Origin: Raillietiella orientalis
Lineage: Eukaryota
Direction of reading: 5' to 3'
Assembly (NCBI GenBank): GCA_036172245.1
Contig: JAYWIR010000007.1
Coordinates: forward strand, 3,968,001 to 4,032,000
Length of the DNA: 64,000 bases
Part shown: piece by piece, positions 195-64,000 of the stretch
Layout of the letters: each line of letters opens with the position of its first letter
Numbering within the stretch: position 1 is the first letter of the stretch
The notes under the pieces: model-generated
What the model was told of the DNA's origin: nothing
The model's database searches: none
What the model saw: the letters and a program-made list of their open reading frames with translations, nothing else
Program-made: the position numbers and the translations under genes

Positions 195-1231
<1,037 letters not shown>

Positions 1232-1274: not shown

Positions 1275-1684
1275 TTATTTTGTTCCTGAACTAGCTAAAG
1301 GATTACGGAGTACAAGAATGACTGAGTCACCTCTCAAAAACATTTTTGAAATATAGCGATCCTTATTAACGGGCTTGGCCTTCTTTCGGCCTCTACCTGT
1401 GCGAGGTAGTTCTGTCCACATCTCCTTAACATTCTCCAGTACCATATTACAGTGTCTATCAAATGCTTTTACTCTTCCCAGTAACTTTTTGTTGTTGCGA
1501 CTGTTGATGAGTACTTGCGTATTATTTTTGACTGATTGCGTGAGGACGGATAACGGACCAGTGCTAAACTCTTCTTCTTCCCTTTTCGAAAGTTCTTCCT
1601 GAGACATTTCGGATTTGGGTTTGTTGGTCAGTGAAGCCCTATGAAAGTCATATACATAATGAAAATCTAGACATACACTTACAT
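1275..1684 (-). CDS. SNRPD2: Small nuclear ribonucleoprotein Sm D2; exons 1683-1684 (AT of the start codon) and 1275-1638
   Basis: Translation (M)[76 protein letters not shown]...[22 protein letters not shown] is near-identical to SmD2. The start codon is split AT|G by a 44-nt GTAAGT...CATAG intron (1639-1682). The ORF-track N-terminal extension from 1742 is read-through of UTR and intron. Confidence 0.96.
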
Positions 1685-15214: not shown

Positions 15215-27063
<11,849 letters not shown>

Positions 27064-31979: not shown

Positions 31980-34900
31980 ATGGATGGAGTGCAGTATTTT
32001 CTGCCGTGTGATATATCAAGATTAATTCTGGGTATGTTTCTTTTGTGCCTGTATTTCAGAAATGCATAAATTCATTACTTGAGTGGTGGTAAGCACAGTG
32101 GATTGGAACCGTGAAAATGGGTGCTTTAGTAACTTACTTTGAGAAATGTTTGTGTCATCAATTGAAATGATGTAAACTGGATTGTACGTAGCGCTAAGTT
32201 ATGTTTCATACATTTATCGGAGTATTTGTTGAAGATTTAGTAATGTAACTGGTTTTTACCGTGTACGAACGATTAATTGTTTGAAAATCCCCCAATCTTT
32301 GAGAAAGAAAACCATATATCCAAGTTACTGAGATAGTCCTGATATTTGAAAATGTGTCACGACGAAGGCTTTCAAAAAAAAAGTTTACAGCAATGTAAAT
32401 TTTTTAGGTTGTCTTCAGGACCATGAATGTTATCAGACTTACGAAACTTATTTGAAGGAAAATTTACATTTGCAAGAATATAACAATCTTTTGCTCAGAG
32501 GGAAAAAAATTTCCACGTGTGTCAGTGGATTGAGCCTTAGTGATATATTGGAAGAATATGGAGAACTTAGGGCGTTAAGTATGCTGCCTTCTCTCAAAGG
32601 TTTTATCAATAGATTAAGTGTTTATCATCACTTAAGTAGAGCTTTGTTTTTTAAAAATTCCACCAATATTATTTTGTACTACGTTTTATTTAAGAATAAA
32701 AGATTTTTGGGAATTAAAAGAATGGTAGCTTTTCGTATGTGTTTGGTAACAATAATTTTGCTTGGGGTGCAGTGTGGATTTTGCATTTTTTGGACGAAAA
32801 TTATTTACTGGTTACTTACTAATGTATAAATAAGACTTCTAAAACTTATATTCTATTGGTCTCATGTTAATTTGTTCCATTTTTTGTTATGCTGACACTA
32901 AATTTTTTCCAACATAAAATTTTGAATATGTAAAGCTCAGATGATACTGCAGGAAGTGAAATGCCTTAATAAAAACTTAATTTTTCGCACTATGGTAGAT
33001 GTCTTGTTTTTTTAGTAAGAAAAGAAAGTGAACAAATGCCTTGGATGAACATTCGAAAAACTGATAGTGTAGTGACTGCAGTAACAGAGATGTTTAAAAT
33101 CCTAAAACAAAAGCATGTCTTGGAAACTTCGTATAAAGTTCGTTATTCTAGTATTTGATGCACAATAAAATTCAGCAAATTCTTTCAGTTGGTACCAAGT
33201 GTTATACCATTACAAAGGTTATTACCACCTGCCAGTTCAGCATCATGGCAACGTTCTTCCATGAACAGAGCAAAAAATATGCGGAAAAAGAAATTTCGTA
33301 TAACCTCTTCTTCGAGTGTGAAAGAACAAAATTCAAAACTTCACTACAAGGCATTTGCAATAGGAGAATCAGATTCTGAAGATATGAATTCCCAATTGGA
33401 GCATTCTGTTGTTCCACGTAAAAGCAGTATTGTTATTTCTTTAAAGCTTGCTTTTAAATACAGATGAAACATCTGAGGAAAGAGCTTCTGTGTTGAGAAG
33501 TCCAGATTCTTACGAAACCACTTCTTTATGTAAGCAACAAAGCATTTCACAGTCAACACCGTCAGTTTTCAAGGAAGCTAATTGTTCAGATACAGGTTAG
33601 TGGTTGTAGTTTGGTCAAGATTTGCTTTAGATTTAATTTTTAGTAAAAGAATTAACCTCAAACAAAAAAGCTAATGTGTATTCTCTGAAATCTCCAGTTG
33701 GTGAGCATGAAATGCAAAGTTCTCTACATGCTAATGGTGCAACTAATAACATAGAGGATAGCAACAGGGATATGTCAGTAAGTCGTGTTCAAATAAATCT
33801 AGAACAAATGCAATTTATAAGTTTGCACATCCCAGCATATTGTGTTGATTTTTAAATTGAAATTTAAGTTATTGAATATTTTTGAAAGTCCAGTGTGCAT
33901 TGCTCATTTATTTTTGATTTTTTCAATCATGCAATTGCTGCAGTTTGGTTTTGTTTTTTGTTTTTTTTAGACAAAAAAAAAAGAGATTTTACTCCCGTGT
34001 TAATGTATTTTTTAAGTAGTTAGAAAGTAACTATGGTATTAGCATTTGTGGAGAATATCAAAACCTAACTTTTCAAACCATTTTCAAATATTTCATTCAT
34101 GTATAGATTTGGCTTTTTTTATGAACCATCATTTTTAGGGGAAAAAAATATTATGCATCATATCTGTTGGTTCTATTCATTGTGATTATACTACAATATG
34201 CTCCAGTTTTATAACTAGCGTTTTGCCAGCATGTACTAGATTCTAAGTGTACAACAGTCATCCACATTCAGCAATAAAAGCAAATACATTTTTCAAGCAT
34301 CACATAAAAATAGAGCTAAATAGGTTTTCTTTTGTGATGTATTTTTCTTTTCAATAATCTTGCTGGAAAATGCAGTGACGATTTTTTGCACCAAACAAAT
34401 AAAAATCTAGTTAATGTTATATGGTCTGAAATTGTTTGATTGCAGTTATATGTGTAGAAAGTAGTTATTCATTGATAGGTATTGATGGAGTTGGGAATGT
34501 ACAAATTTTTGGTTGAAAGCCAAAAATGCCATGAGAAAATTGCTGAAAATATCAATAAAGCTAGAGAGCAGAACTTGGATAATACATGTCGAAGCACAGA
34601 TCTCTTAGTCAAGGAATCAATGGTTGAAACATTACCAGAATTGGATTTCTTCATTAAAAAGGCTGCTGAAGAAATAGCTGACCCATTATATGATGCATTC
34701 TTGGAAGACTTACTTGGTACTTTATATTTTATAATTAAGGAATCACATTGATTTTTAATTAATTTTTAGGATGCTCTTTGAATCCTGCAAAAGAGAAAAC
34801 TGTCAATTCCTCTCCCAATTTAGAATCTGCTACTTCTCAGTCCAGTGGAGAGACTCTTTGTTCTCCTAGTTTTCTTGATGGTTTAAAACAAAAAGCACCA

Positions 34901-37900
34901 GGACATTCAGACTCTGAATACTGTGCCAGCGATAATCACAGTAAGCTGTAAACTGAATTCATTTTCATAGTTTGTCCTATGAAAATGAAATTCAGTTGTA
35001 AGATTCAGATATGTCATTTCCTAATGATGTGTAGGCTTCCATTATCAGTGGAACCAAACGATTTTCCGTTTCAGAGTCGGCTCAACAGACAGTTGACTCA
35101 CAAGATATTGACTCACAGCTCATTTTAAGTGGTTCCCTCAAAGCTTCATGTGCCCCAATTAATATGGCTTCTGTGCAGTCCTCTGTCACCTCTTCCACTA
35201 TAAGGAGAGACAAAGTGGTTAATCGTTCTAGTCGCCATCCGTCTGTAACGAGTTTACCTGTTGCATCAACAGAGACTTGTGCAGCAGCCAAGACATTTGT
35301 TTTGGAATCTGATACCCCCAAAGTGGATATTAAGAAAAATTCCAATTGTTCAGTTCATTCAGAAACTACCTTGAGTATGGATCCACATGAATCCCTTGTT
35401 CAACAGAAAAGTACTGTGTCTGATGTACCTAGCCCCAGTTCCAGATGCAGAGTTACTGAAGTGTTTGATGCAAATAATTTGTCATCTGCATGTCCACAAA
35501 ATTCCACAATCTCTTTTCAGTCAAATGAAGTTCGTTGTCCCCTTAGTTGTTTACCAAACATTCTTAGCAAAAAGACCTCATCCAGTGAGTAACTCTCATC
35601 AGCCGAATTCATATTTCCTGTTGTTCCAGATGAAGTGATTCCTAATGCGGAACGCAGCACATTCATTTGTTATGACCATCAATCTCCAGTTGCAGTTCTG
35701 CAGACAGGCACATGCATTCCCAAGGAAAATATTTTAGAAGAAAGTCTTAAAAGTTTAGATGTTGCTTCCGAGAACAAGTCCTCTGCTCCTGTACTTTGTT
35801 CTCCATTCTTGTTATCAGCAAAATCACCTCTGATTATTAGCTTACCGTCTCCGAATTTTTTAACTGATACCTCCAAAGCTGTTATGACAATTAGTTGAGT
35901 AAAACTAACTAAGACGAAAACCAGTTAATGGAAACTTCTTAGGTGGATCTCAATCCAAATGTATGTCTCAATGTGGTTCACTAGAATTTCCTAAGCAGTC
36001 ATCAACTTTGAGGAGACCATTAAGAATCCAACCAGGTGAATGCTTATTTCCTCGAATGTAAATTCATAAGTAATAATGTTTGTCTAGCCAAATCTTCCAT
36101 CGCCAAATCCTTATACATATTGCCTAACAGTCAACATACTGCTCAAATCATCACTGAAATTCCCTTGAAAAACACTAACTTTGCCCAAGGACGTCCCATG
36201 CGTACTGCATATCAGTACATCTTGCCCAAAAAAAGTGAAGATATGTCTTTCCAGTCCAAGAAGCCAGTTGAAAGTTCTACATGTGATCAGCAACTCGCAT
36301 TGGATTCCTCTGCTAATGAGTCATCAGACACTTTCTTCAGTATTGTTGAGTCTCTGGCTTTGCAAATGCAGGGTCATGTAGAAGGAAATAAGGCATCATG
36401 TACACCTAAACTAAATGCACTGATTGAAGCATCTCAGTCCGAAAAGCAAGAGATGCAGTCTTCAACTGTGACTCCATTCCAGTGTGTTACAAGGAAAAGT
36501 TTCAGCACTCCGAGAAAACGCCATTCCCATGTGCGAGCACTTGCATTTGACTCGCCCAAGAGAACAGAGGTTCTCAGAGAAATGCCCAAATCAACAGGTT
36601 GCAAATATCCATCACAAAAGATCTTAATGGGTCATGGAGCAGGAAGGGAAAACACTGTCAAATCAAAGTTAGACTTTGATAAGTTTCCTGCAGCCTTGGA
36701 AGAAGAATTGCGTGGAAGTCCAAAATTGCATGCAGCAAATAAAATTTGGGATAGTCTAGGTGTAGATCTCATATTTGAAAATGAAAGTAATCCACAAATT
36801 TTAAAATGTGGCGAAAATCATGGAAATAGTATTTTAAATGAGCTGAGCTTAAAAGGAATTCGAGTAAAGCCACCAGGACATTATCTTAACAAAGAAAAGG
36901 AAATTGGCAGACTGGAAGAAAATGAGATTTCCAACGACATTCTATTTGATCCAGTGGTAGAGACATCCAGTTTGGTTACACCACAGAAACCTTTTGATGC
37001 TGATGATGATTTAGTTTTGTATTCAAGGATCCCCAAAACACCCAGTGTTTCCAATCTCGTAACACCTGCAAAATGGTCTTCTGCAGAACAAAAGACTGAG
37101 ATATTCCCATCATTAAATACACCATTGGTAAAGAATGGATTGCCTCTGACCCCAAATCCTGGATTAGAATATATGGATTCCTTTTCCAGTCATTTAATAA
37201 ATGAAATTACACCAAGAAAAACGGATGCCGACCTTGAAGCTGATCTTATATCAGAATGTAGTCGCTTGATAGATGACACCAGCAGCACATCTAAGCAGAA
37301 AGTAAGTTAAATTTTGCATGATGTTGAAATGTACTGTTGTGTGAATCACTTCAAGGATGGGGAACGGATCTCTCCAAATGAATCTGGCTGTTGTCGCCTT
37401 ATAGACTATATCCATAGTAAGCAGTTTGTAATGAAAGAGACAGGAGGTTTAGCAAAGTCTCATATTTCAACTCCAGAACACTGCTGCATCTCTAAAAGTA
37501 GCAGCTCTGGAAGTTTAGTCGATGTTGTAAATCTGCCCTGTCAGTCTTCTGAGGATGATTCCTCTACCGTATCATATATTTCTCCAAACTTTATAGGAAA
37601 AGATTCTATAAAAGAAGATACTGCTTCCCCACTCTCTGCCACTTCGGAAGTGATCATTTTAGATGATGTGATGAGTCCAGAATTGAAAGAGAGTGAGTCC
37701 AAAACAGAAGAAGAAATTTTTGAACATATTGTCAAGAAAAGTGTTGAAATGGGTCAACTGAACGAGGGAATTCGTTTGACTCGAAGTAGACTTAGAGATT
37801 CTGTTTGCAATTCTCCCAAGAAATCCAGTCATAAGGATACTCAGATCACTCCCCTTCCATCTACATTGGTGGAGTCACCGTCTGAAAAAGATAGCAAAAT

Positions 37901-39533
37901 AAATACTGGTTCCGTAATCAAAAAGAAAGCGAAATCAATCGTGCATGCACCCGAAAAAGATGGAACAAACGCTAAAGCTACAGAAGTTTCCAGAAAAATG
38001 GAAAATAAGAGTAAAACAAAACAGAAAAAAGAAGCCTACAACCATAACATACAGGACTGCTCAATTGTGTTAGAAAAAAGTGTGTCCACAGAGGAGAAAA
38101 AACATGCTAATGCAAAGTGTACACCTGACAATGGTATGACAGCTTGTTTTGTCAAGGAGTCGCAGCATGCTGCATGTGAAAACGCAAATCTATCTGATCT
38201 TTGTAAAGAAACACCAGTCAAGCACACAGGTAATGCAGATGTGCGTAACTCTTCAGAATCTTCTATATCCAAAATTGCTAGCCTGATAACAACTGATGCA
38301 AAAGACATTTTCTCCAGCGCAGCCAACGATTTTCTGGATAATTACACATGCTTGTTTGCTACACAGAATGGCAAAGTCGTGTACTTACACTTCTCCAAAC
38401 TGCATTCTTTGTTCAGTCAAATCAGCAGTGTTCCATGTGACATTCATGATTCTTGCAATAATCCCAAAGTAGCTTCTCATAAAATGTTTGTTTCAAAAAC
38501 TTCTGTTCAGCAGCAAAACACGAGTTCTTTAATTGAGAAAGCCGTAAAAAGAAAGTCGTCATCCGGAAATGGCATGTGCATGAATGATTCAAAAAGGCCA
38601 AGGCCAAAAGAATCGGAGACGTATGCCTCCAACAAGAAGTTGCTTAACAGTCGTAGAACACCTAGAAAGCATTCGGCAAATGACAAACAGGATCGAAAAG
38701 TGAAAGGGTTTATGTCTTCAAGATCGCAAACAGAGATGGATAAACAGAGAGTGGAATCTAGATGGTACCATTCAAGAAGGCACAGTTCAGCAAGTGATCA
38801 CAAAGGTCATTTTGTGAAATCGGTAATGCATAAGAGAATGGAAAGCCTGCACGACAGGAGTGTGAATTCCTGTGGCCATGAAGCACCATACAAAGCTCGC
38901 ACAATTTGTAAAACTGAGAAGAAAGAAAACAGGAAGCATTCGGATTCTGCAATGGAGGAAACTCAGTTTATCAAGTTTTCAAGCAGAAGTAGTTTGCCTT
39001 CAAATTTTTGTTGTCCAAAGAGGAATAGATCTAATCATTACTCTGCTATTTCACCAAGTGCCTCTCATGTAAAAGCAGTCATTCCTACAGTTGAAAGATA
39101 TGCCCAAGCTGATACTGGGACTCAACTTTCAGCTGATAAATTTTCTGAAGGTTTAGAAGAAGGTGAGATAGACGATTACCATGGTATGTATCACTGCTTG
39201 CATTAGTCCTATAAAGTGCATTTTAGAATGCCAAGCAAGACAACACAACAGGAGTCCCACACACAATAATAGAAAAGATCAAATTCAGGTAACAGAAGAT
39301 CTTAATAGATTCCTGATTACAATATGACCCAGGTATGTAGCAAAGCTGCTGTGTCTGTGCTTCCTTTACCACCCAAGAAAAGAAAGTGTCTTTCTGATGA
39401 TTCTGATGGCTGCAAAGAAACACTGCCAGGATTAGCTTCTAATCACACCATGCAAGCACACAATCTCAATCACACTGATAATTTACTGCAGAACCTTGAT
39501 ATCGAAAAATTCTTAACTTCTATTCATAGATGA
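31980..39533 (+). CDS. NPAT: NPAT / multi sex combs (Mxc)-like histone locus body scaffold protein; multi-exon, large Ser-rich disordered middle
   Basis: Exon 1 (31980-32031) plus exon 2 (from 32409) give MDGVQYFLPCDISRLILG|CLQDHECYQTYETYLKENLHLQEY...LSDILEEY, the NPAT LisH/N-terminal domain (cf. MLLPSDVARLVLGYL). Also RKRHSHVRALAF, many CDK S/T-P-x-K/R sites (TPRK, SPKR, SPKK, TPVK), a PPKKRK NLS, and C-terminal LDIEKFLTSIHR* matching the NPAT MDVDKFLLSLH tail. Long ORFs 35164-39206 join via short GT-AG introns. Some internal boundaries at 33.0-35.0 kb are approximate. Confidence 0.85.
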
Positions 39534-39590
39534 TTATTTATTACCAATAATGGGTAAATATTATAAGACTTGATAAAATAACTGATCGTA

Positions 39591-40887
39591 CTATGTCAGC
39601 ATAAATTCCTTTGGCCTTCTTTTAAGCCAAAGCTTGAAAATCCACAAATCATCTGCCATGACCACCAACAAAAATCCAAAAATGACGACCACTATTATCA
39701 GATAGCTCATGCAATATGAGGATGTATTCTGAAAAGGTGGATAAAACACTTGCATTTTGGGGCAATTGGATTGCTTGATGCAGTTCACAAGCTGAAAATC
39801 TGTATTCAAACATATCTTGATCTGTGATATATAATTCTTGTCCTGGAAAATATAATTTTCGATTTTATTTACCTTCAGAGTGATACACTCACATTTGCTG
39901 AGAGCTTGTCACAGTTGATCTGAGCTTTTACTTGTAATTTTTTTATTAAAGCATCCTCAATTGTTTCAAGCATGTAACCGTCATTCTCAGAGGGTACTAT
40001 ACGCTCTTCAGAAAGAAGCTTTAATAAATCGAATTTACTTTGATAGTCCAAAGCTCTCCTAAAGTACTTCAGTTCAGTATCAAGTTCTGGGTTCCGGATA
40101 GCACATGTGCCATGTTCCTCCCACTCGTGCTTCCAGAAATTTAATGGATTATCAAAAAAGGATGGCCAAAGCTTATACAGTGATGACCAGATGGGCTGTA
40201 ATGTTTCAAAATTAAATTTTAATGTGGAGTTACACCAGACAATGCTACGACTATCATAATTTGGCCTTATAATTGAACAAGAATAAAAGCAGCTCCAAAA
40301 TTATGTTTTCACTTACCAAAGCCCATGGATCGTCCAAGACGTTATATTGCTTGCAAGTGTTACTGGGCGCTTTAGGGAGGCCAGAATCTGCATCGTTGGA
40401 GGCCACTGTTGGCTAAAGACCAGAAGATTCCATGGTGTCGGTCGTCTGAAAATAAAAACACCAGCTCTTACGTGCACAAAGCCAACGATTGTGCAACAAC
40501 AGTTCGATCACTTTGACATCCGTAAACAGGGGAGTGCACAACCAACCTTTTGGCTGAACCTTGGGCATTGGATAATACAAAGCTGGTCGTTCGGTTGTAC
40601 TTTGGCTTGGGTCGAGGTCAAGCTCGAGACGAGACGCATGAAAGTATTATGAGCATAATGAGTCGGGCATGTGGCGACTAAAACGATTTATGAGCTCGGA
40701 CTGAATGCTACGGTTTCAAGTTCGGCTATGGCGGGGGGGGGGGGGGATCACAATGCCATACAAACCTGACACGTCTCGAAAATTCACGCGGAGTGGCAAA
40801 TGAACAGATTACTCACTTCGGCGTGGCGAAAGCGCCGGGTGGCGAAACACCAGCCAACAGCACGAAGCTCCATCCCAGCATTAACAT
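39591..40887 (-). CDS. RNASET2: Ribonuclease T2 family protein with signal peptide and predicted C-terminal transmembrane anchor; exons 40817-40887, 40317-40445, 39893-40265, 39591-39842
   Basis: Spliced translation: MLMLGWSFVLLAGVSPPGAFATPK|RPTPWNLLVFSQQWPPT...SWTIHGLW|PNYDS...WPSFFDNPLNFWKHEWEEHGTCA...QIKICLNTDFQLVNC...CPKMQVFYPPF...YLIIVVVIFGFLLVVMADDLWIFKLWLKRRPKEFMLT*. Both RNase T2 active-site segments are present (CAS I WTIHGLWP, CAS II FWxHEWxxHGTC). Donors are GTGAGT/GTAAGT and all joins are in frame. Confidence 0.92.
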
Positions 40888-49916: not shown

Positions 49917-52900
49917 GTTCTGATTGCAAAAGTTTTCATGAACAGCCGCATTTCTGTGTTTTCGATGAGCGTCTCGGTGTTTCACATCAGTGAGGAACTA
50001 AAGAAATCACTTATATGTTTCTTGGGTGGCATGAGAGAGATGAGGAAATCACAGGATGTTTAACGAGGCATTCTTTTGTGTATTTCTCCATATCAGAAAA
50101 CAAGCTCTAAAGTGAAAATTGGTCCTACACGAACTGATCTCGACCACAGATATCTTGCATCAAGATATCCTCCGTCAAACGTCGCTCATTAAATCATGGA
50201 ACCATTAAAAAAAGTAATTTTTGAACACTTTGTGGACAGGAGAGCAGCCGTAGCGAACGACCCATACTGCACTCCTCTTGCGAGTCATCTGATGTCAACA
50301 CTTCTGAACGAACAGGCGTTGAGGTCTGTCATGGAAATGTGAATCTGTCGCGCATTAACTACCGTCTTATTATAGAAACGTGCACTAGATGTTCCTTGAT
50401 ATTCCACCTCAATTTCCATATGCACCAGGCTGATATCCAAGTAATTTTCACATTTCGGATTACAGAGAAAGTCTCTCAGAGCGCTTCATTTCCTGCCACA
50501 TGAATTGGTTAAAATAGAAGCAAGGACTGAGAGCACGGAATTCCTCTAGCTCTGGAGAAGATGGTGCACAACACGAAGACTAAGTCGAAGACTGGAACAT
50601 GCACTCCGTTTATGTGGCTGACTTGGGACGGTTGTCAGCAAGGTTGTTTCATCAAAAGCCTTCTATTAAAAGGAATCAACATTCCCATGATTTCACTGCA
50701 GCTCTACGCTTCATCTCATACTTTCATGAATGCAACTGAATTTTCAATCATCAAGTTCAGCACTTTTCCTTTAAGCGAAATCACTGTGCATTCAAAGCAG
50801 ATGAATTTATTATTGTGAACTGCCTTATAATGCATTAGATTATCTTTAATATATTGTTTCCATTCATACAGCAATTGAAATTACAAAGTGAAAGATGAGT
50901 TGCGATGCGGAAAATTGTTGTCTTCTACGCAAAATGGGAGCTGAACGAGAAGTAAAGCCGCATTAGGCTTTCATTCTCTTCCAGTTCTCTGCCGAACCAA
51001 TATATACGCCTATATGTACGCCAGTCCATGTCATTGTGCTAAGCCTCACCAGGGAAATGTGAATAGATGATCCGGAATTTTTTGTTTTGCAATCGAAATC
51101 GAACAAGGACTAGGAACCGCGGCAAGGAATGACAACGAAGCGTTCAATTTGCGGCAAGAAACGCTTCCATTTCACGGCTACCAGATTTGCGAAGATTTGT
51201 GCTGTGCACGCAGAAATCGAAAATCCAATTCCAGTCGAAAGATGAGTATGAGTGGATAAATGCTTAGAAATAACATCCTACAAATGAAGAAAAAACTAGG
51301 GCACAGTGAGAGTTGCCAAAGTTGAATATTGTTGCTTCCAGCTGACAAACTTTAATCCAGTCACGTCGATGTTGCTTGCGATCGGTAAGGAAAATTACTG
51401 CGGATCCTTGATGATTTAGAGCAAGAATCCAAAACTGCGGTACTAAGGGAAGAAAAAGAGTTTCCATGAACTGGATTAATTGTGAAGTAGGAGGAAGATG
51501 GATGAAGTTATTCTGTCGTTTCGCATTGATGCAAACCAGGAGCGGAGTCCAACTTCGCATGCATACATGACAGTAGAAATGGAATGTTGAGTTTTTCAAG
51601 GGAAAATAAAACACTTGAAGGATGGAGAGGTGTTGGACCACAAATTCTGGGGAGGAAAACAGTCTTCCGACATGGATCCGCAGTTGAGAGTCATCAGGAC
51701 TTTCGTAGCGTGAATTATTGATTTCCTTTGCACAGCACGAGATGTTTGTGTATCGCTTCTTTGCAAATATTTGAGTTTCAAGGATATGTTCTATTTACGA
51801 TAAGATCGCTGTGCCTGAGAATTCCCTGTGTCTGTACTCGCAGGAGAGTTGCATGACGTAGTCGGGAACGGATGCGTGTCTTTCGTACGCTTTCCCAAAC
51901 ACCTGAATCAAATTAAGAGGGAAACAAGTATGAATGATTGAAAAATTCTTTTATAACTCACATTGGATGAGGGGCAGGGAAACACGATCCCATCTAGCCG
52001 CTCTTCTGCCCTTCACGGATCAAGCAGAGCGAAAAATGAAAAAGGAAGATCGAGGGGGGAGTTGAGCGGAGGAGGAGGAAAAGAATTTCGCAGGAATTCA
52101 TCTCAGTAGCGGCAGACACCACTGGACCCGGCTGCATCGAAGTGCGCCTAGGTTCATCTTCAAAGGGTCAACTCCTAATCGTGGAATGGCGCTACCGCCC
52201 CCTTTTGGATCAAAGGACATTCTACATTTCCACCGTGCGCCTTCCGTCGGAGATGACTTTCTCGCACCAGATGCCGCCCATCACTGTATCTGGTGGTGCT
52301 GCGCGACGGATCCGGAACAGGCTGTGGCAGCCATTTGCACCAGACCTGCGGTGCGCCCGTCTCGGCGTCCGCTCCCCGAGACGAAGATAGTCTTCTCCTC
52401 CTGGGAAAGAGTGGGAGAGGTTTGGCTTCGGGAGGCTGCATGCTGTGTCTGCCCATCGCTCGGTACCTCCACAGAGTGATCTCCGAGCTGAGCACGGGAA
52501 GACTTGGACGGTGATAACAACAGTCCCTACTGGGAGCTCCCTCGTCCTTTCTCCCTCTCCGTTCTCCTTCCCTACTTCTCCAACAGGGGACGATAGGCGT
52601 GAGACGGTAGAGGAATGAAGGAGAGGACGGCAGGTCCCGGGGCGGCGAGGGCGAGGTGGAAGGGAGTAGGGAGCCATCCGTTCCCAGGGACTTGCACTCT
52701 GGAAACGCTGCTCGCGTGGGGGATTGACTCCGGATCTCCTCGTCTTCAACTGCCTGTCTCAGAGCACCTCCCGTTCAACCCAGAGGTGGCTCAGCCGCAC
52801 CTTCCGCTGTCTCGAGGGGAAGGGGTGAGGTGCACGGAGTGGGTCCCAAATCCTTCTTCCTTTCCATTTCCACCCTTTTTCGACGCTCCTCAAAGGAAAG

Positions 52901-55900
52901 AATGCTTCCAGGTAACTCCTGAAATTTCACTGCGAAGAGGAGGTCCGACGCTGCTCAGGAGTGCCCGAGGAGATTCCCTTTGCAGCTCCCTTCCGCTGTC
53001 TTCGCCTCAAGGTAAATCTCCATGTGCTCGAATAGTCGTCGTTGTCGTGCCTCTAGTCAGGGACACCTCCAGGTCTCAGGAGCTGCTGATCCTCCTCTTC
53101 GCAGTATTGCCACACACATCCAGCGCCAGGTGAGCAGAGCGTGGTTGAATGTTGGTCTCCTTCCTGCTCCCATACCCGGCAAGTGCCCCGGAACGCCTGC
53201 CATGGCGGTCTACGCCTATGACCTTTTGCTCCTGTTGACCATGTCCACCTCTGAGGCAACATCACTCCAGGACTTCGTCAACTGGAGAAGTCGTGCGTGT
53301 GTCCTGTTGGCGCGGTGTGGGCCGAACAGCTGGACTGGATCCGCTTGTGGATCCCCGCAGTCGACTCCTTCAAGTACCCTGGAGTTCCCTTTGGGAACTT
53401 TTGCGTGGCAGCCCGCCCTCCTGGTCCGCCTGTCCCCAAAGGGCAGAGTGGGCTCTCGGTCCATTTCCTGGATGGCCCGTTGCTCTTGCTGGAGCGGACC
53501 TCTGAGTGGAACGCATTCGTGCCCCCCTCCCTCCATTGTTTTTTGTTTGCCCTGACCTTAGAGAAACGAAGAAGCGAGCCGAGGACCTCCTACAGAAGGT
53601 CCTCGGGAAGAAACAGGGTGGCCCCGAGCCAGGCTTGAGGGTTTGGAGGGCTCCTTGCCTGGATGAGGGGCCGGCCTTCCGGCGACGGGGCGAATGGAGA
53701 GGCGGCCCCCATTCAGAAGGCGGGTCTCCTGTTGGGTGCCGAGCACCGGACAGCGCGCTGGCACGTCCTTGCACATCCCCTCGCCGGGAGGGCTGCCGGC
53801 TTCGATGGATCGACATCTTTTCTCGTTCGCAGCCACCGAAACCCGGCCCGACGCGGGTACGCTCTTCGGCAGCTGGGTTGCCATGGTTAAGGGCTATCAC
53901 CTGGGTCTCCTGCCTCCCTGCGGACTGCAGTGCCTGGATCCAGGAAACCGTTCATAAGAGGGAGAAGAGAAGCAGCACTGCGGCTCTCGAACCATGCTCC
54001 TTCTTCGCTGGAGAGGATCAGGGAAGCCCCGGGAAGAGCGTGTGGGTGCAGGGCACCCCGCATGCATCCGCGCAGCCCTCCCTACGGGGAAACGACAGTG
54101 ACCAGCCGGTGGCAGGAGGAGAGGTCAGCTGCGAAGTCATAGGAAGAAGGAACTCATTGGGAAGCCCGCAGTCGACTTGCTGACTCTTCCACCCCCGCTG
54201 GGCCTACAGCAAAGGATTTCTCCGCTGGACCGACCTTCTTGGAAGCCCCTTGGAAAATGTGGACATCTGTGCTCTTCCCCTGAAGTGGTGGGACTCGGCA
54301 TTGCGAATGCTGCATTGAGAGGGACATACGCCGACGACGCCACCGGGGCAGGGAAAGTGGTGCCCCGGGCAGTACCAGGTGCAGTGAAAGGAAAACATTC
54401 CCGCCCCCGTTGATCGCGTGTGCTGCCCTCCGAGGTGTATGGGAGAGTTTCGCGATGGCCCCTCAATCCCCAAGGAACCACCCAGAGGACGTGGGCTATT
54501 CGCCGCCAGGGTGTCCCTGCACGGGTGGCGCCCTGGTGGCGCCCACAGTCCTGCACTGCCCCAGGCGGAGGCGAGAGAGGCCCCGGGCCAGCAGCGACGC
54601 CACCTCTATCACCTTCACCTTTCCGAGAACCACGACAAGAAGACCGTATTCCTTACGCCGCGAGGGGGACCTCTCCAGCATTCTGGGATGGATGAGGGGT
54701 GCCAGGGAAGTTGCTGAGGTTCCCTCCCTTGACCTCACCCTCTTCCCTCGTGCGGACTCCTCTGGACAACTACCTGAGAGCAGAAACGCTTCTTGGACTT
54801 GCATCGACGTAGTGGTATTCGTGACTCCACTGCGAAGGAATGCCCCCCAACCCTTTTTTTTGTTTCATGTACGTAAGATTTTAGAGTAAATGCCTTTGGG
54901 GCGATCTATGGAGAACTCCCCGGATGCATGGACTCTCTTTGGCGCCTTTCCCTTCTTCCGGGGCTTCCTCTGAACCACTTCGGAAGGACGGTGGCAGCCC
55001 CGGAGAGCAGAGAGACTTCCTCCTCGGGCCGCGGATGCGCTCATGCGCGGAGTCATCGCCTTCGTCTTCGGAGGGAAAGAGAAGGCGTAGAGGAGGTGAG
55101 AAAGGAGAGGGGGAAAAGCCAAGCGCCTGATCCGAGGGACAGGAACACGCATTCACTAGCAAGGGGTCACGCGGAACGCACCCCTACTCTTCTGCTCCCG
55201 CCGCTTCCTCTCTTTAGCTCGATCACCGGTGCTGAGATGTCGAGTCGTCTTCCTATCACGGAGCTATCGAGAGGCGTGGGAGAAGAGGGGAGGGATGCAG
55301 CGCGCGAAGAGGACTTCGGTGTGCAATTCCGGCAGGAAGGGAGGGGGGGGGGAGAGAAGGGGAAAGGAGTCGAGCAGATTTCCAAATATGTCGCCACCAT
55401 ATTTGGATTCGCGTCAGACTTCTCGTACCTGCACGAGGGTGCACCTGGAAATGGAAGAAGCCAGTAGACTACAGGAAGAGGGTCCCCAGGATCCGAGAAC
55501 TTCCCCAGACGCGGCAATGGGTCGTCACAAAGGAAAGCACCGGTGGATTGGGAAGGCCAAAAGTAGGTCAAGAGAAGGTAGTTGGTTTTCCCTCAGCCGG
55601 CGGCATGCTCGGCAAGGCACACACATCACCGTCGCCTCATGCCGTGGCAGGCCAATTGGCTACTGCGCCAACAATCCGATTGGCGGTGGCAGAGGGGAGA
55701 GCGCGCCTGCCCGAAACAGGGAGAGTCGGAGGAAGAAACGGAAGGGTGCAGAAAGGAGGAGGAGGAGGGGAGGAGACAAAGCGGCTGCTATCTGCAGCCG
55801 CCGCCGCTGCCTCCGAGCGTACCAGCAGCGTGCTGCTCACCTTCCACGCTCAGAGCGCTTTCCCGACGCTAGCTCGGCAGAGGGAGCTCTGCAAGGGGGA

Positions 55901-58900
55901 AAAGGGTCTCACTCCGGACAGGCTCACCGGTCGTTCCGAGCTGCTCCTCGGCCCACGCACGGGAGAGCGGCGGGAAGGACGTGGGTGGCCAAGTCCGCCG
56001 GACTTCTCACCTGCACGAGGACGGGGGAAGGGGCCGAAAGGCTCGCCTGTGGGCGGCGGGGAGGGGAGAGGGCAAGAAGCACCTGACGACTGGGCGTGCG
56101 TGGTAAGAGATCGGAGCTTGAGAAAGGCGACGACGAACTCCTTGGCGCTGCTTCACGGGCTGCAGGCTCCCAGCAGGAAAGCCCGCGATGGGAGCCAATC
56201 CGGGAGAGGAGGCGGGGAGTCCTCCCGGATGTCTCCCGAGCTGCCGGAGGGGCTCGCTTGAGGGCCTTCGGTGTCTGTCGACCCCGATTACGCCTCCCCT
56301 TCGTGGAGGGGGGAAGGAAAGGCGGGTGGGTTCCCTCGAGTGCAGAAGGACCGCGATCAGGTCAGGTCCCGCCCCCCTCTCCTTCCCTCCTGCCAGACGG
56401 CGTTTGCCGGGGAGAGGCTCTTCGGGGCACAGGAAGGGACAGACGAAAGGAGGAAGGGAAGGTTGCCAGGTCCCGGAACCCTGCGTCCCCGACTGGGTGA
56501 GCGAGTGCTCGCGGCAGCGGCGGCCCACTCCGCAGACGGCGGGAGGCGGTGCTACAGGCGGGCGGAAAACCCGCGGCGCGGTTACGCGAGCGAGAGTACG
56601 CACGAGCGGGTTTCGTGCGCGCTCGCGGAAACCAACGAAAGGGAAGGAGGCGGGGGCGGCTCCGCGCCCGCTGTTGCCGCCTCCGCCGAGCGCACCAGCA
56701 GCGTGCTGCGCACCTGCTGGCTCGCTCGGCGCGCTTCGCCGGCGCGGGGTCAGCCGCTGGGCGACGGGTCTCGGGACGAGAAACCTCCCTGCCCACGCGC
56801 AGCGGCACCCACTGGACCACCCTGCGCCTGGCCCCGAAACCGGCCTGAAGTGAGCGCCTTCCCGCTTCAGGCCGGTCGCTGAAGGGGGTGCGTCGGGCAC
56901 TCCGACTCGGTTGCCGCCTCCCCAAAGGGTCCTTTCTCTCCCCGCAGCCGCAGGACGACGGCGCCTGTGGCTTGCGTGGAGTAGACCGGAGGACCTGTCC
57001 CGGTTGCCGACGCGGAATGCCGATCGAGGGGGAGCGAAAGTGGCGCGAGGTCTGCCACCTTCGCTCTGCGCCCTTGGTGATGGACGCGGGCAGCGCCACG
57101 GTGGACGCCGTCGACCGCCGCCGTGTTTGACCGCGAGCGCGTTGCAGCTACCGCCACGAGGTGAGCGCACGAGAGGAAGAAGGGGGGGGGGCAAAGAGCG
57201 GAAGGAGCGGCCAAGGACGAGGACCCCTTCTCCCGGAACGAGGAAGGGAGCGCTCTGGGGCTCTGGCACCCTTGGAAGAGGCACGCCGCCCGCCCACGTG
57301 GAAGTTGCGGCGGCCGTCTCGTCCGGCTCGCTCGCGGTTGCCGGGTTCCCTTGCGCGTGGACGTCGAGGGACGGACGGAGGGAAGCTTCCCGGTGGGCAG
57401 GGAAGGGGACGAAGGGGCTCGGACATCTCCCTGGCAGGCGCCGCCGGAAGCGGGAGCGGACCGATCGCCTGGCGGCGGTCCGGGACGCGCAGCAGCAGTG
57501 CCGTCCGCCATCCTCCGAGTCTCCTGGAGTTCCTGCACTTCTCGGATAGCAGCGGGGGCAGACCCCTGCGCTCATGCAGGAAAGTCCGCATGACGTCTCC
57601 TGGGTTCGGATTCCGGCCAGGTCAGCGGTCTTCCTAGACGGTGGGAAGCGGATAGGGGAGGGGCTTTCCCTATCCGCTTCCTGCCCCTTCCGGGACTGCC
57701 GCCGTCCCCCTCCACTCTCTGCCCGTCACGGCAAAGGAAGGGGGAGAAAAGAAGGAGTGCTCTGTTTGCTCCGTCCCTCCGCCTCGTTCATTCACAACGA
57801 GCAATTGGCCGGACTCCCTCCAGGCTGGTGAAGCAGAGAGCCGGGGCCTTCCCGGCTTGTCCTCCCCCCTCCCTATGGAGAGGCGAAGGAGCTCCGAGGG
57901 AAGAGCACGAGCGAGTCAAGTGGAACGGGAGGGTGGGAGAAGCAGCGGCGATCCTGGCGCCAGGAAGGTCTTTCGCCCGAGAAGAACTCGTCAGCGGTCC
58001 CGTATGAATTCCCTTCGGACCAGTGGGAAGAGAGCGTTGGCGAAGCCGGCTGGGTCGCGCGAGCGCCAACTCTGGAAAGATGACGAGTGGAGTGCCTGTT
58101 TCCTCGTCCCTCTCTCCCCCCACTACCCTCTCTCGAACACGCATTCCCTCCATTTTTTCCCTTCTGGACATCCAGGTGCTGGCAGGCAGCCGCGCGAGCT
58201 GCGACAATCGTCGCGCCTACCCGCGTGAAGATAGGAAACTGCGCCAGCCGCACGAGAGCGCCGTCTGGAGGCTCCCGCGGTGGTTGACCCCAGTCCACAC
58301 CCTTTCGTGGAGGCGCCATGCGAAGCGCCCGGTGCCCCTTCCGTTACCGAGGGATGCCGATGCCGCCTGAGCCGGCGAGGGCCTCCCAGTCGCCCTCTTT
58401 TCGACCCGCCCTGTTCCCAAGCTTGTCCGCAAGCCAGTCGGGGAACGCCGGAGAAGGTGACGGAAACGGGAAATGCAAGGGGAGAAGGGACAGCGGATTT
58501 GGAGAAGCGAGAGTGGAAATGCGAGAAGAGCCCTTTGAGAGTGGGAAGGGTGGGGCTGCCAGGTGGAAACCCCCGCGCAGGACCAAGGACAATCGTCCAC
58601 TTTATCGTTCCGATTAGAGTGGGCGTCAAAGGGAACAAAGGGAGGAGGACTGGATCGCGAGCGGGATTCTCAGGGGGTTCTGCTCTCCTTCGGCTGCAGC
58701 CAGCCACCGGGTCGACCCTCGAAGACGAGGTGACGGGAATGCTGGGGAGGAAAAGGGGGCGAAGGAAGAGGAAGGGGGGGGTTTCGCTCTTGCGACGCCT
58801 TCGCGGGAGATGCAGGAGCCCCGCAGCTGGCAGTGAGGTGCTGAGGAAGAGGAATCCACCAGGAACGCTTTCCTCTGACCAGAGGAATGCAGGGAGAGTG

Positions 58901-59850
58901 GCTTCCAGATGTCGCGGGGACACCCCCAGTTCTCCTCGCTCCCTCAGCAGGAGGCTCCCTCGGGATGAGGACGGCGCGCGAGGAAAACGTACTGGCCCGA
59001 GAAGAGGGCTCAGCAGAGGCGTCCATTCCTGTATGGTGGCAGTGCTGGTCTTTTGGCAGGCGCTGCTGCTGGATGCACAGCGCTCTCTGCCGCCAGTGGT
59101 CCCAGAGGACTCGGATCCCCTTCCAGCCTATCTCACCTCCTTCCCCTCACACCAAAGAAGGAAGGGGGGGATAAAGGGAGACAGGAGAGGAGGGAGCGGG
59201 AGAGGTCCTGGATCAGGTACCAGATCGGGGTCCTGATCGGGGACTGCTCGCCGAGAAGACCCTGAGGGGAGCCGCAGGCTTGGCGGGACAGCCCCTGCCT
59301 GAGGATGCCCAGGGTGAAGGCAAGGAAGGAAGAGGTCTGGGGAACAGGGAGATGACGAAAAAAAAGAGGAAGGACCAGAAAGAGGTGGACGCGGGAGAGA
59401 AATGGTGGCGATGGTGGAGCCAGAGACAAACCATTCCCTGCTTTTTTCTTCCTGGGTGCTCCGGGACGAAGAGAAGCAGAAACAGCAGCAGAAGAAGAAG
59501 TAAAGAACACAGTTCATGTGGGGAAGGGAAAGGGGAGGAGGAGGAGGAGGAGAGAGAGACAGGAGAGAATCCAGGGAATTTTCTCTTGGTTGCTTCCTGG
59601 AAACGCGTTGTTGGCGCCCTCGTGGTCAGATGCACCTTTTTCCCTTGAGCACCGTGGAGGGAGAGGTGGTAAAGTAGGGGGCCCCGACTGCTGGATCGAC
59701 AGCCCTCCCCTCCTCCCTTCTTCTGCTTTACCGGGAATGGACGGTCTTCGTTTTTCCCGGAATTCCAGGGGGCGGCAGTGTGCGCGCACTCCCGGTCGGC
59801 TCTCGTCGCTGAAGAGATCGGACAAGAGGAGGAAAAAGAGGAGGAAGAGG

Positions 59851-59910
59851 AACGACGCGTCACGCGTGGAAGCCGAGACGTGACGTCAGAGACGTTCTAT
59901 TTATAGACCG
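59851..59910 (+). promoter_or_regulatory. CRE plus MEF2/TATA-like promoter cassette
   Basis: Half-CRE CGTCA at about 59858, full palindromic CRE TGACGTCA at 59881-59888, and CTATTTATAG at 59897-59906 (perfect MEF2 consensus CTA(A/T)4TAG, also TATA-like), standing out as an AT island in GC-rich DNA. Confidence 0.45.
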
Positions 59911-60028
59911 CCGCACGCAGGCCGAGTCGTGTTGCGGTTTGCTATTCCGCGCATGTGCCGTCTCCGCGTCCCTGAGGGATCGCGGGCGCACTTGACACGC
60001 GCTAACGAGGGAGAAGAGAGGAAGAGGG

Positions 60029-60425
60029 ATGGGAGAGGAAGAGGAGGATGAGGAACACGAATCTCCCTCCCCCGTTTTGTTGATCCCAACAGACCTCTCG
60101 ACGCGTTGTGTCGCTCAGGGGATAGGAGGAGGCGGAGGAGGAGGAAGGAAAAACCTGAGGGAGGAAGGGGGATGGCTGCGGCGGCGGAAACGCGCGCGGC
60201 GCGTGCGAACGTTCCCCGGCGTCGATCAATGGATAGCAGCGGAGCAAAACAAACAACGGGAACTCAGGGGGATGGGGAAGGGGAGTGATGCTCTCGGAAG
60301 AACGCGTTCCCCGGACGAAAGCGTCTTCCTCGGAGGGGGAGAGAGTGAAAGAGACTGTTCCCACGTAAACAGGGACGTTTCCTTTTTCTCCTCCCTCCCC
60401 TTCTCTTCGCCGCCCCCACCTTCAG
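60029..60425 (+). CDS. Candidate first coding exon of an unidentified gene (acidic N-terminus, PTDLS motif)
   Basis: ATG in good context (GGGATGG) about 120 nt downstream of the TATA-like element, open frame MGEEEEDEEHESPSPVLLIPTDLSTR..., ending at a consensus-like donor CAG|GTACGT (60425/60426). No downstream exon identified. Confidence 0.25.
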
Positions 60426-63400
60426 GTACGTCGCAGGAGGCGCGCGAACGAGGGGACGGGAGCGAGGGATTCCCGTCGGTGCAGCGGGGAGAATGACGAC
60501 GCATGCGAGCTCCGGAGGGAAAGCAGTCGGGGTTTGCAGGAGGATGCTTGCGAAAAAAGGGAAGGGGGAGCTATCATGAAAAGCGACCACGGGGGAGTAG
60601 GGAAGATTTCATCCCCCTCTTCCCTCCCTGGTCGAGAACCTCGTCCTGAAAGATAGTCGTTCCAGAAGCAAAGGACGGACTCACTGTCCTCTGTCCACTT
60701 TTGTCGCTGCCCCCTTCGTGTGCACTTCCGGAAAACGAATGATCTGGAAGGAAGGGCTGGGATGAGACGAGGAAGCCCTACGTGGATCGATGCCGCACGT
60801 ATCCACGAACGAGCCTGGCCGCGCGGCCGGTGCGGGTGGACATTGGAGGCAAGGCTGTTCTGCTTTACAATGGGGGAGGGGGAGGGTTAAGGAGGGAAGT
60901 GGAGGCGAAGGGTGAAGTTGGGGTGCGAGAGTGAAGGGGTCCCTCCTTCTCCGCCCTTCCTTTCCTCTACCCCCGAGGAGACTGGTTCCCCGTAATGACC
61001 CCGCTGGGAAGCGGTTCTGGAGTAGAGGAGGGAACTGCGAGTGGTCCTCAACGAATGAAAGAAAGGAAGCTGCCCAAACCCCAGCAGCAGGATGCAGTTT
61101 TCTGGAGTGCGGCCTTGGAGCAACGATCCAGCGGTGCCAGTAGCAAGCATCAGCAGCAGTAGAAGAAGAAGAAGAAGAAGCTGTGGACAACACAACTAAC
61201 GACTTTTTTTTTCTTTTCCCTTTCAGACAGAAAAAAAACAAAAAAAAAAAACAAAAACAAAGAGAAGAAGAGGAACGGAGAGATGCTCGACGAAATCACG
61301 AAGCAGGTCGGCGGCGGCGGCAGCGGCATATCCCTTGCGATGCCCGTCTGCTCCTTCCGCGGGATACAGCAGCGGCAGCTCCACGGGAGAAAGAGACGGT
61401 GGCGACGCCAGCGGAGGAGCCCGAACCAGTTCCTCTTCCAGCCGTCCCCGGTGCGGGGGAAGGGGGGATGCTTCGGGATGACCTTCGGGCGACTTCATCC
61501 ACCGGGATGCCTTCCACCACGTTCGAACGGCCGGCAGCAGCGGCGGCAGCAGCAGCAGCAGCAGCAGAGGGGACGTGGGCTTTTTTTTTTCTTTTTTTTT
61601 TTAGCTTTTTTTTTTTTTTTGTCTTTATCTTCTTTCTCGGGAGTCTCTCCTTGGACACCTCCGCTCGCGGAGGGAGCGGGCCAAGTTCAAGCGGGAGGGA
61701 AGGAACGCCTCCTGGCGGCCAGGGGAACGCGAGCACGGGATCATCGCAACTGACTGGATGCAACGGGTGGCGGTAGCGGCACCGCCGCCTCCCCCTGGAG
61801 GTTGCGGCGAGATCCGTCCGGCGGCTTCCAACGGCTCTTTACCGTCTGCCCCGCGTCCAGCGAAGGATGGCGTCCGCCAGCACGTCGATGTGGATCTTGG
61901 TCTGGAAGAAAGGAGGGAAAGGTGCGGAGAAGAAGCCACGGGCACAGCATCGCTCGGGGTCCCCGTTCCTCCCTTTTCTTCCCCCGTCTCCCCTCCTGAG
62001 CACACTCAAACCGAGGGGAGCCAACAAACGGCTCCCTATTCCTACGTCGCCGCCTCCGAGAGGCCCGCCGCGCGGCGGCCGCAACGACGACGACGAAACC
62101 CGCGGGTGGACTCGCGCGCGTTTTTCTGTTTGGGAAAGAGCAGGTGACGTCGTTGACGACATCCTCCCGGAGGCGTCCTACACACTCGAAGCGTGTGTGC
62201 CCTCTCAGGGAAAGGAGGAGGGGAGGGGAGGGAGGGGGAACGTTCCTATTGTGTCTTGGGGAATGCGAAAGGGGAACGCGTGATCGCGAAAGGCATGGGG
62301 AAGACAGGAGCGACGAAAGGAGAGAGCAGAGGAAGCAGCAGCAGCAGCAACAAGGGGCGCGCTGACACGGTCGCTCGGAGAGGTTCTGCTCTCGCCACCA
62401 AGGATCGCAATTTCGTTTTCGTTCGATCCTCCTTCCCCTCCTCCTCCTCTCTCCGCGAGTGAACGTGGCCGCTATCTTGGCAAAGAGAAGGAAAGGAAAG
62501 CGAGGAGGGGATGGACGCTCAAGTCTCCCTCCACCACACCCACACCCCTCCCTTTCTCTCGGGAAGGGCAGGCAGTCAGGACGCACGGGCAAACCACCAT
62601 CTTCGGGGTAGCGGGAGCGAGGGGGCCTCGCGACGAGTCTTCAGCGACACTGCGGCGCCTTCCGGTGGCGGGCAATTCCCGAAGAAACGCACGCCTCCCG
62701 GAAGTGTCACCTCGTAGGGTCAAGAGACAGTGCTGCTCTGTGTGCCACCCAAATCGAAGAGAACGGGAAAATTCCGAGATGGGATCGGCGCCGAGGAGCC
62801 GGATGGCTTTTCGCCCTCCCGAAAATGATCTCCCGGGAATATCCCGCCGTGTTCCAGAAAGTCGCGGAGAGGAATCATTTCTTAGGACGATCCAAGAGGC
62901 GCAGGGGAGAAGGAGCGGAGGGAAGATGGCTCTGTCGCCTTCCTTTTCCCTCTCTCCATCCCTCCCAAGGGGTCCCAAGAGGTCCTTCCTCGTTCCTTTT
63001 TTTTTCTTTCCCCCCCGTTGTTGTTTTTTTCCCTTCTTGACCCCTCTTACACGTCGTTCAAGAGCCATCCGACCTACGAGTGCACTCACGGCCTCCGCTG
63101 CCACCGATGCCGCGTCGGACAGGTCAGCGCGGCACCGCGTTATCTGGCGACCTCGAACGCACACTCTCTCGGAGGCGAGGAGAAGGAGGAGTGAGGGAGC
63201 GAGCAAGCCGGTGACGCACGTGACCTGAGCGACCCCGCGAAAGCTGATGTGGAGAGCCCAGGCGAGGGGCGCTCTCTGTAGTCCACTTCGCCGCCGCAGC
63301 AGCAGCAGCAGGCACGGCAAGGATTAAGGAAGGAGTCAGCGACGCAGCAGCGGACCGCACGGACCTTTCCATCCCTCCCCCTGCTTCCCGCGCAGCACGT

Positions 63401-64000
63401 GCGCGATTCATTCCCATCATCAAACCAACGGGATCGCGGATCGGCAGTCTCCGGGTGTTTCGTCTCTTCCCGCGATGGCATTGTGCCCGCAAGGCGCATC
63501 TTTCGTCGACCTGATTTAATGAAACGGGAAGCATAATCAATGGTCCGGTGAACGAAAGTTAGACGTCGGGTCTGCAGATTACGTCCCAGACGCCCGGACC
63601 ACCGTCCGCTGACGCGCTAAAAACAACTCGCAGCACTCGCTCATGTGCTCCCGCGAAACGCGAAGTGGGCTGCTTTCCCTCCTCCTCCTCAGCGGGGGAG
63701 GGTCATGCAAAAAGGTCTCGCGTTGGAAGACGGCAGTTTTCTAAGCACTCTTCTACTTCCGCCCGCCCCCCCTTCCGGGCCGAGGGAAGAGGAGAGGGGA
63801 GGAAAGGGAAGGGGGAGGAGGAGGCGATTCCTTCTCGAAAAGCGCGGGAGGAAGAGCCTTGCAAGGAAAAGGCGAGGGCCCCTCAGCAGTGGTGCGACCA
63901 CCGCAGACGGGCTTGCTAGCCGTCGGGTGCCGCTCCCGTTCGCCCGCACGCCGCCCAGTGAGTAGCGCGAGCTCTCCCTCCCACTGTCAAGATTTATTCC

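Follow-up and report, generated by a model that had tools for sequence, protein, structure and literature searches.

The closest described counterparts of the gene considered here are human RNASET2 (PDB 3t0o) and Drosophila RNase X25. Animal T2 enzymes are described as secreted or lumenal proteins (PMC4136927), their housekeeping role being in lysosomes (PMC4136927; PMC12684396), and for human RNase T2 the residues His65, His113, Glu114, Lys117 and His118 are given as catalytic, along with four disulfides (PMC3458558). Membrane-anchored lysosomal hydrolases include PLD3 (type II, cleaved to a soluble nuclease), ENPP4/5 (type I) and transmembrane ACP3 (PMC12684396). Similarly to the protein predicted below, these are lumenal hydrolases of nucleic acids or phosphates carried on a single anchor and sometimes released by proteolysis, but their folds are unrelated to T2, and the analogy is one of working only. 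Lysosomal acid phosphatase ACP2 is also a type I precursor. Pestivirus Erns associates with membranes through its C-terminus, the anchor being an in-plane amphipathic helix. Erns is a T2-family RNase (PMC11410658). It is viral and of probable bacterial origin, and, in contrast to the anchor predicted here, its anchor is not a membrane-spanning run with a cytosolic tail. The words “transmembrane,” “C-terminal” and “GPI” do not occur in the main text of the protostome survey (PMC4136927), nor “transmembrane” in that of the plant survey (PMC5598434), and supplements of both may list tailed sequences. Full-text literature searches on RNase T2 together with transmembrane, GPI, sorting or membrane yielded no paper on a transmembrane cellular T2 among the matches listed.

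A T2 gene has been identified on the minus strand (40887–39591) of the window, that is, the entire 64,000-nt stretch of Raillietiella orientalis DNA that was analyzed. The four exons of the gene model predicted from sequence (Table 1; the last one spans 39842–39591) give a frame of 825 nt whose only stop is the terminal one, encoding 274 aa; the three introns (371, 51, and 50 nt) are of the GT–AG type with GTRAGT donors. We propose, giving this reading about an even chance, that its product is a membrane-tethered, probably weakened RNase T2 on the inner face of endosomes or lysosomes, serving routine RNA recycling. It shares with human RNASET2 and RNase X25 the fold family, a signal peptide, the CAS I/II residues His64, His113, Glu114, and His118, and three of four disulfide pairs, and differs from them in the added hydrophobic run and tail, Glu in place of Lys117, and the absence of the first disulfide pair.

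TABLE 1. Elements of the T2 gene and its 3′ flank, in window positions.
Feature	Position	Strand	Basis
Exon 1: start codon and predicted signal peptide (residues 1–21 = 40887–40825)	40817..40887	-	First ATG of stop-to-stop frame; donor GTGAGT at 40816
Exon 2: first strand and CAS I (His64 = 40327–40325); without the Cys pair of human 48/55	40317..40445	-	Pfam PF00445 positions 1–41; pattern match; homolog segments
Exon 3: RNase T2 core and CAS II; His113, Glu114, His118 kept; Lys117 position = Glu (GAA, 40117–40115)	39893..40265	-	Pfam E 1.1e-30; human 3t0o
Exon 4, 5′ part: RNase domain end (Cys202, Cys212, Cys218, aromatic-Pro end motif)	39732..39842	-	Alignments A1, A2
Lumenal linker, 9 residues: N-glycosylation sequon N230, unpaired Cys235	39705..39731	-	Translation
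Predicted transmembrane segment, residues 238–254	39654..39704	-	Hydropathy 3.15, chance tests
Tail of 20 residues, predicted cytosolic (3 acidic, 5 basic; neither YxxΦ nor dileucine), and stop	39591..39653	-	Motif definitions as given in PMC5297682
AATAAA polyadenylation signal, 49 nt past stop	39537..39542	-	Sequence
Acceptor-like pyrimidine run ending CAG at 39729, within coding sequence	39729..39746	-	Sequence

Exons 2 and 3 match Pfam PF00445 with E-values of 4.8e-4 and 1.1e-30 (107.6 bits for the latter, the cut-off being 26), the PF00445 search of the genome gives 123.9 bits at this gene, and exon 3 aligns with human RNase T2 across CAS II at E 2.1e-16. Exon 4 by itself has no Pfam match and no usable match in ESM Atlas; it matches a profile of homologs at E 1.3e-13, this profile having included exon 4 itself, and Cys202, Cys212, and Cys218 are invariant in the 30-row alignment A2. 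A word-index search with exon 3 returned one match in 243 candidates, and the phage collection yielded no match.

The T2 gene faces a large convergent low-complexity gene on the plus strand (approximately 34430–39533, stop at 39531–39533), whose stop lies 57 nt from that of T2, and which has no Pfam match. Its last residues resemble the C-terminal motif of NPAT/Mxc. As no canonical AATAAA is present on the plus strand until 40023, the 3′ UTRs of the two genes may overlap in antisense. Elsewhere in the window are a proteasome subunit exon (523–1131, plus strand), Sm D2 (1278–1640, minus strand), with Ser at query position 46 where four aligned PDB chains differ, and nearer in PDB to the human chain than to that of a nematode, and a kinase (23896–27063, plus strand; Pfam Pkinase), presumably LATS/Warts-like. 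From 0.29–0.41 over most of the first 50 kb, GC content rises abruptly to 0.59–0.69 in the region 52000–64000, which is rich in simple repeats and for which the ORF list shows no obvious gene.

Family, protein, and motif-pattern searches of the 210-Mb assembly produced three T2 loci at most, the window gene and a tandem pair on contig C45, the counts being lower bounds, as these searches score best candidates only. The window gene is the only T2 found with both catalytic His. Four matches to CAS patterns at other loci (three to CAS II, one to CAS I) were rejected as chance, the best profile E-value being 0.61. The preliminary description had raised the question of a separate soluble paralog; no canonical soluble T2 was found by the family, protein, and pattern searches, which set a lower bound, and such a paralog may have been missed by best-candidate scoring. 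Paralog A (G000:C45:218695-216637, minus strand) has a signal-peptide exon and introns at the same three places and in the same phases as the window gene. Its tail is as long as that of the window gene (49 residues, counted from the end-of-domain Pro up to the stop) and has a hydrophobic run, whose 17-mer hydropathy is 3.06, then a basic cluster and the tyrosine motif YNSL. It has no catalytic His and is predicted to be catalytically dead. Paralog B (G000:C45:220939-219922, minus strand), whose first exon was not found, lacks both His, is also dead as judged from sequence, and has a polar 44-residue tail (hydropathy 0.95) with no hydrophobic run. Within C45:216637-220939 (L006:2637-6939, minus strand) a short stretch upstream of the second exon region of each paralog looks duplicated by eye (L006, approximately 4085–4130 and 5360–5405). 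No significant alignment was obtained between the last exons or tails of the window gene and paralog A; their layout suggests a common origin of these tails.

The window protein retains, in addition to the catalytic residues named above, the CAS I Trp residues. Both His of the T2 signature, in CAS I and CAS II, are present; out of the canonical catalytic features, the CAS II Lys and the full set of four disulfides are absent. Lys occupies the CAS II lysine position in 143 of 158 homolog motifs; the other 15 carry T, R, A, I, M, or S there, and Glu occurs in none. The change at codon 117 may be a single-base assembly error or an allele. Cysteines are found at positions 78, 121, 185, 202, 212, 218, and 235, and the first human pair, missing here, is also absent in very few homolog segments. 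Compensating frameshifts that could hide this pair in exon 2 were considered and rejected, as the in-frame residues ahead of CAS I match those of homologs. The lysine change, the lost pair, the two dead paralogs, and the lack of a detected canonical soluble T2 all go beyond the preliminary description.

The absence of Glu at this position from all 158 motifs, together with the loss of the first Cys pair, raises the possibility of a dead enzyme, which would then be a non-catalytic membrane protein binding RNA or a protein partner. The listing of Lys117 as catalytic in human RNase T2 (PMC3458558), the loss of both His from both paralogs, and the inactive T2 duplicates known in protostomes (PMC4136927) point the same way, and in the duplicates of Nasonia and flatworms attenuation or inactivation likewise combines duplication with active-site loss, although the changes there hit His, not lysine (PMC4136927). 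Still, we consider inactivation improbable: unlike the paralogs, the window protein keeps His64, His113, Glu114, His118, and the CAS I Trp, other non-Lys residues do occur in 15 of the 158 motifs, and, were the enzyme dead, no active T2 would have been detected in this animal. In RNase Rh mutants, loss of the CAS II lysine reportedly lowers cleavage and need not abolish it; a literature search for this lysine mutant found no paper. By the same logic, loss of the lysine here would lower RNA cleavage, not necessarily abolishing it, and the enzyme is probably weakened.

The reading frame continues past the usual end of the RNase T2 domain into the hydrophobic run YLIIVVVIFGFLLVVMA (residues 238–254), and the preliminary description was right in placing this run at 39704–39654; its mean Kyte-Doolittle value over a 17-mer (3.15) is the maximum of the protein. 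Twenty residues separate the run from the stop (39593–39591), with three acidic and five basic ones making eight charges, net +2. The tail had been called basic, and the five K/R are indeed present, but on this side of the run two Asp come first, adjoining it, while the basic cluster is 7–14 residues off. An amphipathic helix behind the anchor is not evident, the moment being weak (at most 0.41). At the N-terminus, the hydrophobic core and the A-F-A end at residue 21 agree by inspection with the signal peptide suggested earlier for exon 1. Hydropathy and inspection yield the layout of a type I protein, that is, a signal peptide, one spanning run, and a C-terminal tail, and we predict with high confidence that the signal peptide places the RNase domain in the lumen and residues 238–254 stop transfer.

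Similar tails were looked for among homologs. A HMMER scan with exon 3 retrieved 1,541 representatives at E ≤ 0.001, of which the best 150 were analyzed (identity to the window protein at most 45%); 43 of the 150 were dropped as short or C-terminally incomplete, leaving 107 complete sequences. A simple hydropathy rule assigned tails to the transmembrane type (a run followed by at least 10 residues) or to the GPI-like type (fewer than 10). Eight of the 107 carry a transmembrane-type tail and seven, a GPI-like end, one of the latter calls being doubtful. Transmembrane-type T2s include those of Strigamia (T1IQR3), Mesorhabditis (CAJ0578598.1), and the alga Edaphochlamys. GPI-like ends are found in Amblyomma (XP_077522877.1), Galendromus (XP_003746238.1), Varroa (XP_022667604.1), Octopus (XP_014790239.1), and Brassicogethes (CAH0555666.1), the representatives with GPI-signal-like C-termini (octopus, mites, tick, beetle) being P0009, P0028, P0078, P0112, P0131, and P0032. 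Some tailed homologs may be gene-model errors. Contrary to the uniqueness implied by the preliminary description, tailed T2s are recorded also in a copepod (see below), centipede, nematode, mites, tick, beetle, octopus, and green alga.

The alternative between a type I and a GPI anchor, left undecided earlier, turns mostly on the region behind the run. In a GPI-anchored protein the tail would be a GPI signal, cleaved and replaced by a glycolipid, with the hydrophobic run at the extreme C-terminus and no charged tail. The small residues Thr-Ser-Ser ahead of the run and the GPI-like ends in seven of 107 complete homologs are compatible with this, but the run is followed by 20 residues with eight charges, compared to fewer than ten residues in GPI-like homolog ends, and the spacer is only about five residues, making GPI anchoring extremely unlikely. 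The type I layout with a charged tail is shared by paralog A and by homologs.

The tail could also be incidental, due to a recent stop-loss, or not made because of splicing in exon 4, the product being an ordinary soluble enzyme. We regard this as very unlikely. Shuffling of local DNA produced an open read-through of 30 aa or more, containing a 17-mer with a hydropathy of 3.0 or higher, in two of 20,000 cases, and in none of 20,000 when at least three K/R were also required behind the run; in real DNA, 99,520 overlapping start points of window positions 1–50,000 (both strands, real genes included) yielded 164 such cases, and 46 with K/R. GC3 of the tail is coding-like at 0.50, whereas GC is 0.27–0.30 in both short introns and only 0.21 in the gap past the stop. 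A private stop-loss, which the preliminary description had named as the case against it, is unlikely, as paralog A, with a matching exon layout, has an equally long tail, and eight of 107 complete homologs are tailed likewise. Out of GT and GC sites inside exon 4, only the GC site at 39753 is donor-like (6/7 consensus matches) and could in principle remove the anchor, but splicing from it would delete the conserved last strand of the domain. Splicing to the acceptor-like site at 39729 would preserve the frame of the tail, and hence the anchor, while deleting 38 domain residues. No AATAAA is present between the RNase domain end and the stop, and the 57 nt to the stop of the convergent gene leave no room for another exon. 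On the other side stand the polar tail of paralog B, the lack of a close ortholog (identity at most 45% among the best 150 of 1,541), and a gene model predicted from sequence.

A second search, its profile seeded with tailed proteins, added a clade found on transcript-sized contigs, including the copepod Oithona nana (EP00093_P002336). Proteins of this copepod-type clade (P0249 from Oithona nana, P0171–P0183, and P0054) have kept the active site intact and carry both a transmembrane-type run and, at the very end, a YxxΦ motif (GYEEI, GYEAI, QYETL, GYETI), similar to LAMP1, which ends in GYQTI; motifs of the YxxΦ type are read by AP adaptors and drive endolysosomal sorting (PMC5297682). Judging from these features, the clade would be the best example of a lysosomal T2 with an anchor, and it appears to be undescribed. 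Two representatives (P0002, P0152) are tandem double-domain RNases T2 (592 aa) with a transmembrane-type run and the motif GYARI. In the pooled searches, 169 of 202 representatives are complete, the second search being biased toward tails; in this tail-biased set, a C-terminal YxxΦ is present in 14 of 25 tailed and five of 144 untailed representatives. A YxxΦ or dileucine motif anywhere past the run is found in 21 of the 25 tailed homologs, and also in paralog A.

The uncharacterized tailed T2s from databases share with the window protein the T2 domain and the hydrophobic C-terminal segment. They differ from it in that all 25 transmembrane-tailed representatives keep CAS II Lys-His and the copepod-type ones end in YxxΦ, whereas the window protein has neither this Lys nor, in its tail, (G)YxxΦ or [D/E]xxxL[L/I], the signals of LAMP-type cargo, and does not join them in the trees. 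In domain-only trees, tailed proteins are scattered, and in a quick tree of 128 rows the copepod-type proteins form a 15-row clade (SH-aLRT 99) with the window protein outside. Forcing the window protein together with this clade or with paralog A is not rejected in a quick search (AU p = 0.64 and 0.84, respectively), and unforced trees join it with neither. As trees neither join nor reject these groupings and the tail does not align with that of paralog A, the sorting motif of relatives is not confidently transferable to the window gene.

Three points favor the endolysosomal reading: no other T2 with both His was detected besides the window gene, the role of the family is lysosomal, and anchored lysosomal nucleases exist (PLD3, ENPP4/5). 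The tyrosine motifs of tailed homologs, carried by most of them, point inward, to endolysosomal compartments. What speaks against this reading is the window tail itself, with no YxxΦ or dileucine motif and two Asp adjoining the run. Lacking a sorting signal, a type I protein would tend to end up at the cell surface, which makes surface display the main rival: the protein would stay at the plasma membrane (gut, epidermis, or blood cells) and cut or hold extracellular RNA, in line with the proposal of the preliminary description. T2s of mites, a tick, a beetle, and an octopus have GPI-like ends, which suggests that some T2s are displayed at the surface, and the lumenal domain of the window protein has a pI of 8.15, but the only T2 found with both His would then be diverted from the conserved lysosomal job of the family, and 14 of 25 transmembrane-tailed homologs have a YxxΦ end. 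We consider a surface protein possible, if doubtful. A broader variant has the T2 family acting as membrane receptors, the window protein holding RNA at the surface with a crippled site and the dead YxxΦ paralog carrying RNA or RNA–protein cargo into endosomes, which would constitute a route of RNA uptake or sensing; this seems rather improbable.

Under the preferred endolysosomal reading, the window gene, as the sole detected T2 with both His, would carry the housekeeping role of the family, its product reaching acidic compartments via the cell surface or by lumenal signals. Cleavage within the short linker may free the RNase domain, as described for PLD3. We also considered the anchor as a stand-in for a missing mannose-6-phosphate route and found this unsupported, as the genome has a CI-MPR-like multi-repeat gene (G000:C27:1888208-1891500) and a Stealth/GNPTAB-like gene (G000:C3:368019-368362); the three sequons of the window protein (N57, N79, N230) could serve this route instead.

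Anchored T2 appears to be a variant that recurs beyond this genome and has apparently escaped description, an architectural one with precedents in other lysosomal hydrolases, rather than a new system. Given predicted anchors in the window gene, its dead sister gene, and many invertebrate relatives, it is likely that an enzyme known as soluble is tethered to lysosomal or cell-surface membranes in several lineages. The copepod-type clade, with its intact site, anchor, and terminal YxxΦ, is the cleanest test case, while this genome adds an odd state, one altered anchored enzyme and two dead paralogs. Should the anchors prove real, RNase T2 would be delivered or displayed as a membrane protein in several invertebrate lineages, in some of them with LAMP-like tyrosine motifs, and this would bear on the sorting of lysosomal RNases beyond the vertebrates and on the site at which arthropods destroy dietary or applied RNA.
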